44,416 nucleotides of DNA from Escherichia phage UHP65, in the sequence record PQ511047.1. One strand, written 5' to 3'. Position 1 is the first letter of the stretch; each line of letters begins with the position of its first letter. Below, in pieces: positions 13,092 to 13,138 of this stretch. A program made the translations under genes and the position numbers. The notes below the pieces were generated by a model, which searched no databases, was not told the origin of the DNA, and was given only the letters and a program-made list of their open reading frames with translations.

Positions 13092-13138
13092 GTTGGTTAA
13101 TGACCAACGAAACTACACCTAAAACCGCAATGTGTCAA
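13092..13138 (-). promoter_or_regulatory. sigma70-like promoter (TTGACA-17-TAGTTT) with 17 bp palindromic operator-like site
   Basis: minus -35 = 13133-13138, -10 = 13110-13115; palindrome GTTGGTcattaACCAAC at 13092-13108 between -10 and RBS. Confidence 0.5.

Follow-up and report, generated by a model that had tools for sequence, protein, structure and literature searches.

The locus and its genome context

We analyzed a stretch of 44,416 nucleotides (nt) from Escherichia phage UHP65 (sequence record PQ511047.1), here referred to as the window, with regard to a leftward promoter, here named PL, that carries a short palindrome and precedes a gene for a helix-turn-helix (HTH) protein. Since the window and the complete genome of phage jat were colinear at the level of single genes, we regard the window as a whole genome of the siphovirus genus Dhillonvirus with a size of ~ 44 kb. 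The intergenic share of the genome was 10.5%. No integrase or lysogeny module was annotated in the colinear jat genome or in the type phage HK578. The 851 bases around PL matched 175 phage records with 80-98% identity, almost all of them Escherichia Dhillonvirus, and a 57-nt stretch of PL was present in 150 GenBank phage records. A paper on promoters, transcription or regulation in Dhillonvirus was not found in the searchable literature.

The HTH gene is followed by a primase-helicase gene, the open reading frame (ORF) of which starts 10 nt past the HTH stop codon. This gene order was kept in all relatives. For the N-terminal 370 residues of the primase-helicase no solved structural relative was found. 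Ksap1, the trigger of Avs2, is a different protein.

For the window-type comparison we used 14 Dhillonvirus loci from IMG/VR (loci and contigs are given L numbers here) whose HTH proteins were 77-99% identical to that of the window. For the divergent members of the HTH family the contigs were fetched and their PL regions anchored on the -10 hexamer. A second search for relatives with the HTH alignment led to the same 15 loci.

The PL promoter and its palindrome

An earlier note on this DNA had listed TTGACA, 17 nt, TAGTTT, a palindrome, AGGAGA and the HTH gene, and each of these elements was found base for base on the minus strand (Table 1). Its term "near-consensus" fits the -35 hexamer (6/6) and the spacing but not the -10 hexamer, which matches at 3/6 positions; these are the three most conserved ones (TAnnnT). 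PL was not listed by a standard promoter scan with a threshold of at least 4/6 per hexamer, because its -10 falls below this value.

The sequence of the spacer varied among relatives while the -35 and -10 hexamers were constant, and the promoter therefore stands out as a phylogenetic footprint. In nine divergent lineages the -35 read TTGAC(T/G/A). At the position of the -10, TATATT (5/6) was found in L016, L018-L021 and L037-L039, and TAGTAT in HK578. The Shine-Dalgarno sequence of the HTH gene drifted among relatives (AGGAGA, CGGAGA, TGAGGG, CGGGGA). Furthermore, the GenBank record of HK578 (JQ086375) annotates three consensus-like promoters, the equivalents of PL, of a candidate small-RNA promoter (see below) and of the divergent rightward promoter PR. 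These were annotated by consensus similarity only, and the record names no operator, repeated motif or small RNA. Taken together, the comparison supports PL as a conserved, putative sigma-70-type leftward early promoter in front of the HTH and primase-helicase pair. The early leftward operon proposed in the earlier note thus agrees with a conserved promoter before a conserved gene pair.

The palindrome, GTTGGTCATTAACCAAC, consists of 6-bp arms and a 5-nt centre. Neither it nor the promoter match is significant alone, because both counts were at chance level: TTGACA-N16-18-TAnnnT occurred once in the window with 0.6 expected from shuffles, and perfect palindromes with 6-bp arms and a 5-nt spacer occurred nine times with 12.1 +/- 3.8 expected. 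The conservation of the site was more informative. Its core TTGGTCATTAACCAAC was kept in 15 of 16 window-type loci, the remaining one (L012) having a single A-to-G variant in the right arm, and the block TTGACAC ... GGTGTAGTTTC-N-TTGGTCATTAACCAAC was essentially invariant in the 14 IMG/VR loci. In the same loci, the stretch from the palindrome to the ATG had changed repeatedly (AGGAGACTGAATT, CGGAGACAGAATA, TGAGGGCTGAGCA, CGGGGACAGAAAA). The outermost G:C pair was not conserved (G, A or T in relatives), and the conserved core is TTGGT-N5-ACCAA(C).

In nine divergent lineages (including L016, L018-L021 and L037-L039) the arrangement was TATATT-N9-GCAACCAA followed by the ribosome-binding site (RBS), while the window reads TAGTTT-N9-TTAACCAA followed by the RBS. 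As the right arm sits where the divergent relatives carry the canonical GCAACCAA, the palindrome is related to the family of the 8-mer TTGGTTGC, and by position the right arm is the orthologue of a canonical copy in which GC was changed to TT. The quality of the left arm varied: TTGGT was found in L018, TTGGC in L021, GTGGT in L038 and TTGTC in L016, and the arm was absent in L019.

Several further elements lie in or next to PL. The sequence ACGCGTGCGCGC is found just upstream of the -35 in the window. TATACGCGCGC is located in the PL spacer of divergent Dhillonvirus-like lineages (L018 at 9935-9950, L021, L016 and L038) and recurs beside the TTGGTTGC array of a relative with 65% G+C, L126 (6490-6505). 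A mini-ORF of 24 codons (MRRELLLHACAPVSISKGFDTLRF; 13118-13192, minus strand) starts behind a TAACCAAT-AAGAGA layout and ends within the PL spacer; its last residues stay in frame in L005 through a pair of compensating 1-nt indels, read by eye.

Table 1. Features of the PL region and of related sites in the window
Feature	Position	Strand	Remarks
PL -35 hexamer TTGACA	13138-13133	-	invariant in 14 Dhillonvirus loci
PL spacer, 17 nt	13132-13116	-	variable between constant hexamers
PL -10 hexamer TAGTTT	13115-13110	-	invariant in window-type lineage
Palindrome GTTGGTcattaACCAAC	13108-13092	-	operator-like, over predicted start (~13101-13105)
Left arm TTGGT	13107-13103	-	weak second half-site
Right arm TTAACCAAC	13100-13092	-	degenerate copy of GCAACCAA
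Shine-Dalgarno AGGAGA of HTH gene	13091-13086	-	7 nt before ATG at 13078
HTH protein, 109 aa	12749-13078	-	first gene of PL operon; ATG at 13078
Primase-helicase, 754 aa	10474-12738	-	second gene of PL operon; Pfam AAA_25, E=2.3e-19
PR, TTGACT-18-TATCAT	13255-13284	+	putative divergent rightward early promoter; 10/12 match; canonical GCAACCAA in spacer (13269-13276)
Sister palindromic operator TTGGTTGCACACCAA	43549-43563	+	overlaps last two bases of a TATATT -10, just before RBS of gene 43586-43900
Sister operator TTGGTTGCACATCAA	10009-10023	-	behind -10 TATATT of promoter for gene 9512-9991
SSB-operon promoter TTGACC-17-TAGATT	16211-16248	+	GCAACCAA in spacer (16225-16232) and right behind -10 (16241-16248)
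Promoter-like TTGAAA-17-(TGt)AATAAT	13151-13179	+	10/12 match, TG extension
Intrinsic terminator	13209-13245	+	hairpin AGCGCCGG..TCGGCGCT and T9, -16.9 kcal/mol; between PL and PR

The TTGGTTGC motif family in the window

The 8-mer TTGGTTGC, with the reverse complement GCAACCAA, was present in 20 exact copies, whereas shuffled sequences contained 1.87 +/- 1.34 and none of 100 shuffles reached 20. Similar numbers were found in the relatives jat (21) and HK578 (19). In the window 16 or 17 copies were intergenic and two more lay in the last bases of genes; a copy inside a tail gene is probably due to chance. The family is strict, since variants with one mismatch were mostly located in coding sequence and look like chance matches. 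Copies were often paired (6711/6734, 10016/10047, 10419/10454, 16225/16241, 22795/22812, 24719/24731, which is inverted, and 43535/43549), and five of them surround an iteron block at 10016-10461, past the primase gene.

Nearly all copies were found within core promoters, about a dozen in total, and read in the direction of the downstream genes they fell into three registers. In the first, the copy supplies a -35 as TTGCnn, 17-18 nt before TATATT, TATAGT or AATAGT (10050, 10422, 19857, 22799, 27440). In the second it lies in the spacer, 1-2 nt before the -10 (PR TTGACTcccatccTGCAACCAAtcTATCAT, the promoter of the single-stranded DNA-binding protein (SSB) operon at 16211, and 22812, 24731 and 43535). 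In the third it stands directly behind the -10 (16241 and 6711, and TATATTGGTTGCAC at 10016 and 43549). Additionally, both orientations of the motif occurred. Three registers and both orientations point to a repressor-operator arrangement; a lone promoter element or an activator site upstream would not be arranged in this way. A reading of TTGGTTGC as a plain -35 element was rejected, as a -10-like hexamer followed 16-18 nt past TTGCnn at only ~6 of the 20 copies and the others lay in spacers or behind the -10, in both orientations. Host sites of the sigma-54, IHF, DnaA, CytR and PdhR/GntR types do not appear to fit in spacing or sequence; the PdhR site, for example, is TTGGT-N3-ACCAA, while the spacing here is N5.

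The promoter placement was conserved as well. In PR, GCAACCAAT was invariant in all eight aligned lineages, and two tandem copies were present in L016 and L018-L020. The orthologous SSB promoters of L018, L019, L021 and HK578 carried the motif in the spacer. A subclass with the arrangement TTGGT-N5-ACCAA was found behind the -10 at PL and at two other promoters (43549-43563 and 10023-10009), here named sister operators, with the same inverted layout of a strong and a weak half-site. The sister site TTGGTTGCACACCAA was conserved in jat and HK578, and TTGGTTGCACATCAA was a perfect TTGGT-N5-ACCAA in most relatives. The regulon behind this motif appears to be undescribed in the searchable literature.

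The TTGGTTGC pair at 43535-43556 overlaps the rightward promoter of gene 43586 and lies at ~-60 and -75 from a candidate leftward promoter of the structural-gene block (TTGCGA-17-AATATT; 43485-43513, minus strand). One protein bound at this pair could repress one direction and activate the other.

The motif outside Dhillonvirus

The nearest primase-helicase orthologues outside Dhillonvirus, with 44-47% identity, were found in Edwardsiella phage eiAU-183, Serratia phage Smarc3 and Salmonella phage FSL SP-031. All three kept the divergent early region, and the gene before the primase-helicase codes for an XRE/Cro-type HTH protein of ~ 70 amino acids (aa), which is unrelated in sequence to the Dhillonvirus HTH protein. 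A homologue of the latter was not detected in the three phages, either by tblastn or with a profile of the DNA-binding half against all ORFs. Exact copies of TTGGTTGC numbered 23 in eiAU-183, 13 in Smarc3 and two in FSL SP-031. The layouts in eiAU-183 match those of the window, for example TTGGTTGCAT-17-TATAG-TTGGTTGC, in which the second copy overlaps the final base of the -10, and a pair in front of TATAGT. The XRE protein is not coupled to the motif, because it is encoded in FSL SP-031, where the motif is lacking.

When IMG/VR was scanned for TTGGTTGCA in tandem, most matches were either repeats within the coding sequence of tail-fibre-like genes or iteron arrays without relation to the motif (L064, L112), and L126 was the only relative. 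This contig with 65% G+C carries homologues of the nuclease, SSB, PolA, VRR-NUC and SNF2 genes. Ten copies of TTGGTTGCAC lie in an AT-rich gap right past its VapE-type primase gene, one pair directly behind TAAAAT. By tblastn no HTH homologue was found in the 13-kb L126 locus. The presence of the motif in eiAU-183, Smarc3 and L126 without this protein suggests that the motif is old, moves together with the replication module and can do without the HTH protein.

The HTH protein

Three Pfam families matched the protein above their cut-offs, HTH_23 (30.5 bits), Sigma70_r4_2 (29.2 bits) and HTH_28 (28.5 bits), all in the C-terminal third. The AlphaFold2 model (mean pLDDT 88.8) consists of a variable N-terminal helix, a helix of 58 residues (22-79) that probably forms a coiled coil, and an HTH of three helices at the C-terminus. 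Matches to solved structures were confined to the last ~ 34 residues, and these structures were HTHs of the LuxR/GerE/NarL type and of transposases.

The family comprised 24 clusters, all of them Dhillonvirus-like. The N-terminal ~ 45 aa were hypervariable and the C-terminal ~ 60 aa nearly invariant, with 47 invariant columns. The N-terminal part (12944-13078, minus strand) is a recombining cassette with at least eight unrelated versions among the 24 clusters, which suggests diversifying selection on a protein-interaction surface. The homologue in HK578 differed in its N-terminus and slightly in its recognition helix.

Several class assignments were rejected. The Cro/CI class (XRE, HTH_3) was matched with 17.8 bits (E=0.0033) at a cut-off of 23. 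A sigma-70 family factor is disfavoured, as the Sigma70_r4_2 match (cut-off 25.7 bits) covers residues 65-103 only, region 2 is lacking and the rest is one long helix. In databases (GenBank, PHROGs) the protein is variously named transposase, resolvase or "DNA recombination nuclease inhibitor gamma". These names are supported by the HTH alone, as is the PHROG name "transposase"; HTH families were the only matches, and no catalytic or Gam family was found at E<=1.

The palindrome as a putative operator

In the explanation that we favour, host sigma-70 RNA polymerase would read PL into the HTH and primase-helicase genes. The palindrome would be an operator at about +1 to +15 of the predicted start and a local, partly degenerate member of the TTGGTTGC family, further sites of which are located within about a dozen early and middle core promoters and flank the replication-origin region past the primase gene. 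A sequence-specific protein recognising TTGGT(TGC) would occupy these sites, block RNA polymerase and turn down PL together with the other promoters, probably as a dimer at the TTGGT-N5-ACCAA subclass. Because the site covers about +1 to +15, binding there could only hinder RNA polymerase. The binder would be a factor common to Dhillonvirus, Eiauvirus and the more distant carriers of the same replication module, and not the HTH protein. Should it be the primase-helicase, as the product of the second gene of the operon, a feedback on PL would remain, in the manner of plasmid Rep proteins.

That the site has some function we consider probable. For the full statement, by which the palindrome belongs to the TTGGTTGC family as a degenerate operator of the dimer type and is positioned for repression of PL, we see about equal grounds for belief and for doubt.

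Several points weigh against this explanation. The earlier note had likened the arms to a "TTGGTTGCA family"; the family is real and the right arm is orthologous to a canonical copy, but the arms match the 8-mer at only 6/8 (TTGGTTAA, plus strand) and 5/8 positions (TTGGTCAT, minus strand) while nearly all other members are exact, and a strict binder might not recognise the site at PL. HK578 kept the -35 and the TAGTAT -10 in front of an unrelated leader without the palindrome, so the site is dispensable in at least one lineage. No candidate binder was singled out by presence or absence across the genomes. Furthermore, TTAACCAAC followed by GGAGA recurs at places that are not promoters (13460, 13210) and in FSL SP-031, and since the layout recurs off promoters and without the regulon the right arm might act at the level of RNA or translation. 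Finally, promoter activity, the PL start, binding, repression and the nature of the binder are inferred from what the comparison displays directly: sequence elements that are conserved and orthologous to canonical copies, and a motif that is enriched and located in promoters.

With regard to candidates for the binder, a 57-aa zinc-ribbon protein (19917-20090), the VRR-NUC protein and the acidic product of the first PR gene were kept everywhere, including FSL SP-031, which is without the motif. The primase-helicase was examined by domain-wise identity, and no segment separated the lineages by iteron type; its overall similarity does not follow the motif either, as the orthologue is present in FSL SP-031, where the motif is lacking. 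The acidic protein, encoded first in the rightward operon (13481-13930, plus strand), has a Lys/Ala/Pro-rich repeat (KPAKTKKAPAKGKKAPAKGKGKK). It was kept in the four genera examined, and no Pfam family matched it.

A broader reading extends the operator to the whole module (DUF2800 nuclease, Enc34-type SSB, PolA, primase-helicase, VRR-NUC, SNF2). Here, TTGGTTGC would be the site of a protein from this widespread module, which would mark the origin region, be located within most early and middle promoters and couple replication to a genome-wide switch of transcription, PL being fed back by the primase-helicase and not by the HTH protein. We regard this extension as speculative and unlikely to hold in full. 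If it were true, the site would have been kept from the enterobacterial Dhillonvirus and Eiauvirus to the relative with 65% G+C.

Alternative explanations

The earlier note had proposed autoregulation. In such a model a dimer of the HTH protein would bind the palindrome and repress its own promoter; in an extended form the protein would also bind TTGGTTGC as a global Cro-like turn-down factor. We consider this possible but rather unlikely: a conserved operator-like palindrome does lie at PL, but the HTH protein is not favoured as its reader. In its favour are the position of the gene, which is the first of the operon and where related genera have a Cro/XRE-type regulator, and the Pfam comparison, which revealed a DNA-binding domain in this protein and in no other small early protein. 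The predicted 58-residue helix would suit dimerisation, the 47 invariant C-terminal columns parallel the invariance of the motif, and lineages that have the same HTH differ in their iterons (GCGGGACA or GGTGCC), so that the HTH is not the iteron binder. Additionally, residue 95 at the start of the recognition helix co-varied with the operator type at PL in 26 sequences (the window and 25 loci), including the N-terminal recombinants L038 and L040: it was Q in 16/16 loci with TTAACCAAC, V or M in 9/9 with GCAACCAA, and R in HK578, which is without the site. However, this Q/V/R pattern is explicable by linkage, since the N-terminal cassette can be exchanged only by a double crossover, in which the two flanks stay linked, and a window-type protein with Q95 would still need to read ~ 20 canonical GC-type sites. 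The comparison of genomes speaks against the proposal from both sides: the promoter layouts with the motif recur in eiAU-183 and Smarc3, which have no homologue, none was seen in the L126 locus, and HK578 has a homologue and the promoter without the palindrome.

Instead of an operator, the right arm together with the Shine-Dalgarno sequence (UUAACCAAC-A-GGAGA) might form a leader element at the RNA level, either a translational enhancer similar to the epsilon/RBS of T7 gene 10 or the target of a candidate small RNA with its gene 100 nt upstream, with the symmetry being incidental. The layout TAACCAAY-N-(A/G)GAGA-ATG indeed occurs three times in the PL-PR region (13078-13100 and 13192-13210 on the minus strand, 13460-13483 on the plus strand) and also in HK578. 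It is found once in FSL SP-031, a phage without the regulon, behind a TTGACA-17-TAATAT promoter with the same N9 offset. The RBS of gene 13481, GGAGATATAC, is identical to the core of the T7 gene 10 RBS. On the other hand, the family as a whole acts on DNA, because the copies in promoter spacers are not transcribed, and window-type genomes kept the left arm, even though its position is at or ahead of the predicted start. We therefore judge an RNA-level element to be quite unlikely.

The small RNA in question would be defined by the promoter-like element and the intrinsic terminator between PL and PR, which together delimit a possible transcript of ~ 58 nt (13187-13245). The hairpin with its T-run was kept with different stem sequences in L016, L018, L019 and L021. 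The single-stranded 5' part of the candidate carries an invariant CUCAUUGUC, for which no obvious phage target was found as a seed, and Rfam gave nothing near gathering scores in 12900-13600. In the window type the 5' part is complementary to UAACCAACAGGAGAC at 13/15 positions plus one G:U pair (-16.7 to -18.9 kcal/mol, p ~0.01 against shuffles), but the HTH leader ranked only 4th among 58 translation-initiation regions. Co-variation was not found: in HK578 the small RNA is the same but its target is lacking, and in L019-L021 the pairing was no better than in shuffles. Targeting of the HTH leader was not relied on.

A chance palindrome would mean that the promoter is real and GTTGGTcattaACCAAC an ordinary leader kept by recent common ancestry. 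Palindromes of this size were as frequent as in shuffles, the window-type lineage is fairly shallow and HK578 is without the site. Common ancestry does not readily account for the fact that the RBS stretch and the spacer diverged in the very genomes in which the palindrome stretch did not, and that an AACCAA core lies at the identical offset in nine lineages with otherwise unalignable surroundings. We find this explanation hard to sustain.

A stem-loop at the mRNA 5' end, which would stabilise the transcript or cover the RBS, is hardly credible: the fully transcribed hairpin reached -6.7 kcal/mol (z = -2.9), but the predicted start lies inside the left arm and a leader from 13105 folded with -3.9 kcal/mol (z = -0.2), no better than shuffles, while the left arm was not kept in L019, L020, L037 and L039 and no compensatory changes were found.

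Origin iterons

Apart from the TTGGTTGC family, an iteron (A/G)CGGGACA formed two clusters in the window, one at 10260-10370 just past the primase-helicase gene (7 copies) and one at 37700-37960 (~ 9-12 copies), where 696 bp of non-coding DNA separate the tape-measure gene from the tail genes. The window may therefore have two origin-like regions at a distance of 27 kb. In place of this iteron, GGTGCC was found in L019-L021, L037 and L039, and GGGGGAGA in FSL SP-031. A promoter-like sequence, GTGAATAGTTATGCA (10385-10420, minus strand), reads into the iteron block and was kept from Dhillonvirus to FSL SP-031 though the iterons differ.

Significance and comparison with known systems

An early promoter with an operator over its start is ordinary, textbook phage regulation. 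Less ordinary is one exact 8-mer in the cores of about a dozen promoters in a genus of virulent coliphages with wide use in work on defence systems (BASEL phages Bas14-Bas18, SECphi18, SECphi4). The 8-mer is common to Eiauvirus and a distant G+C-rich relative, and a description was not found in the searchable literature. Knowledge of its reader would reveal the transcription programme of these phages and offer a means of engineering their timing. Furthermore, the analysis corrects the tempting inference that an HTH gene beside a palindrome encodes an autoregulator, and also the misleading database names of the HTH protein.

The locus resembles lambda Cro with OR and OL, where a small HTH protein is the first product of an early operon at divergent promoters and the operators overlap the early promoters; the expected effect here would likewise be a turn-down of early transcription in lytic growth. 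The XRE/Cro regulators of eiAU-183, Smarc3 and FSL SP-031 occupy the same gene position as the HTH protein described here. In contrast to Cro and XRE proteins, however, the best families of the latter are HTH_23, sigma-70 region 4 and HTH_28. The sites are spread over about a dozen promoters and not two as in lambda, and the comparative data argue that the HTH protein is not their reader.

A second parallel is found in the sites of P1 C1 and of mycobacteriophage L5 gp71, with an operator of 17 bp and a stoperator of 13 bp, respectively. As in these systems, the site is short and asymmetric (8-9 bp here) and occurs in ~ 20 mostly intergenic copies, some of them overlapping or inverted pairs that resemble imperfect palindromes. 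Both proteins are immunity repressors of temperate phages, whereas jat and HK578 are without an annotated lysogeny module. Stoperators are also oriented with transcription and can lie off promoters, while the sites here occur in both orientations and in promoter cores.

Compared with the Rep proteins of iteron plasmids (P1 RepA, F RepE, pSC101 RepA) and P4 alpha with ori/crr, the TTGGTTGC motif differs in that it is also present in many promoters unrelated to the control of replication. The origin has a second, lineage-specific set of iterons (GCGGGACA, GGTGCC or GGGGGAGA), and similarity of the primase-helicase does not predict the motif, as seen in FSL SP-031. A resemblance is seen in direct repeats of a motif that cluster beside the replication gene and origin: to the five copies around the iteron block of the window correspond ~ 10 just past the primase gene of eiAU-183 and the ten past that of L126. 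In a layout reminiscent of the Rep systems, PL, the putative promoter of the operon with the primase-helicase gene, is overlapped by two half-sites in inverted orientation.

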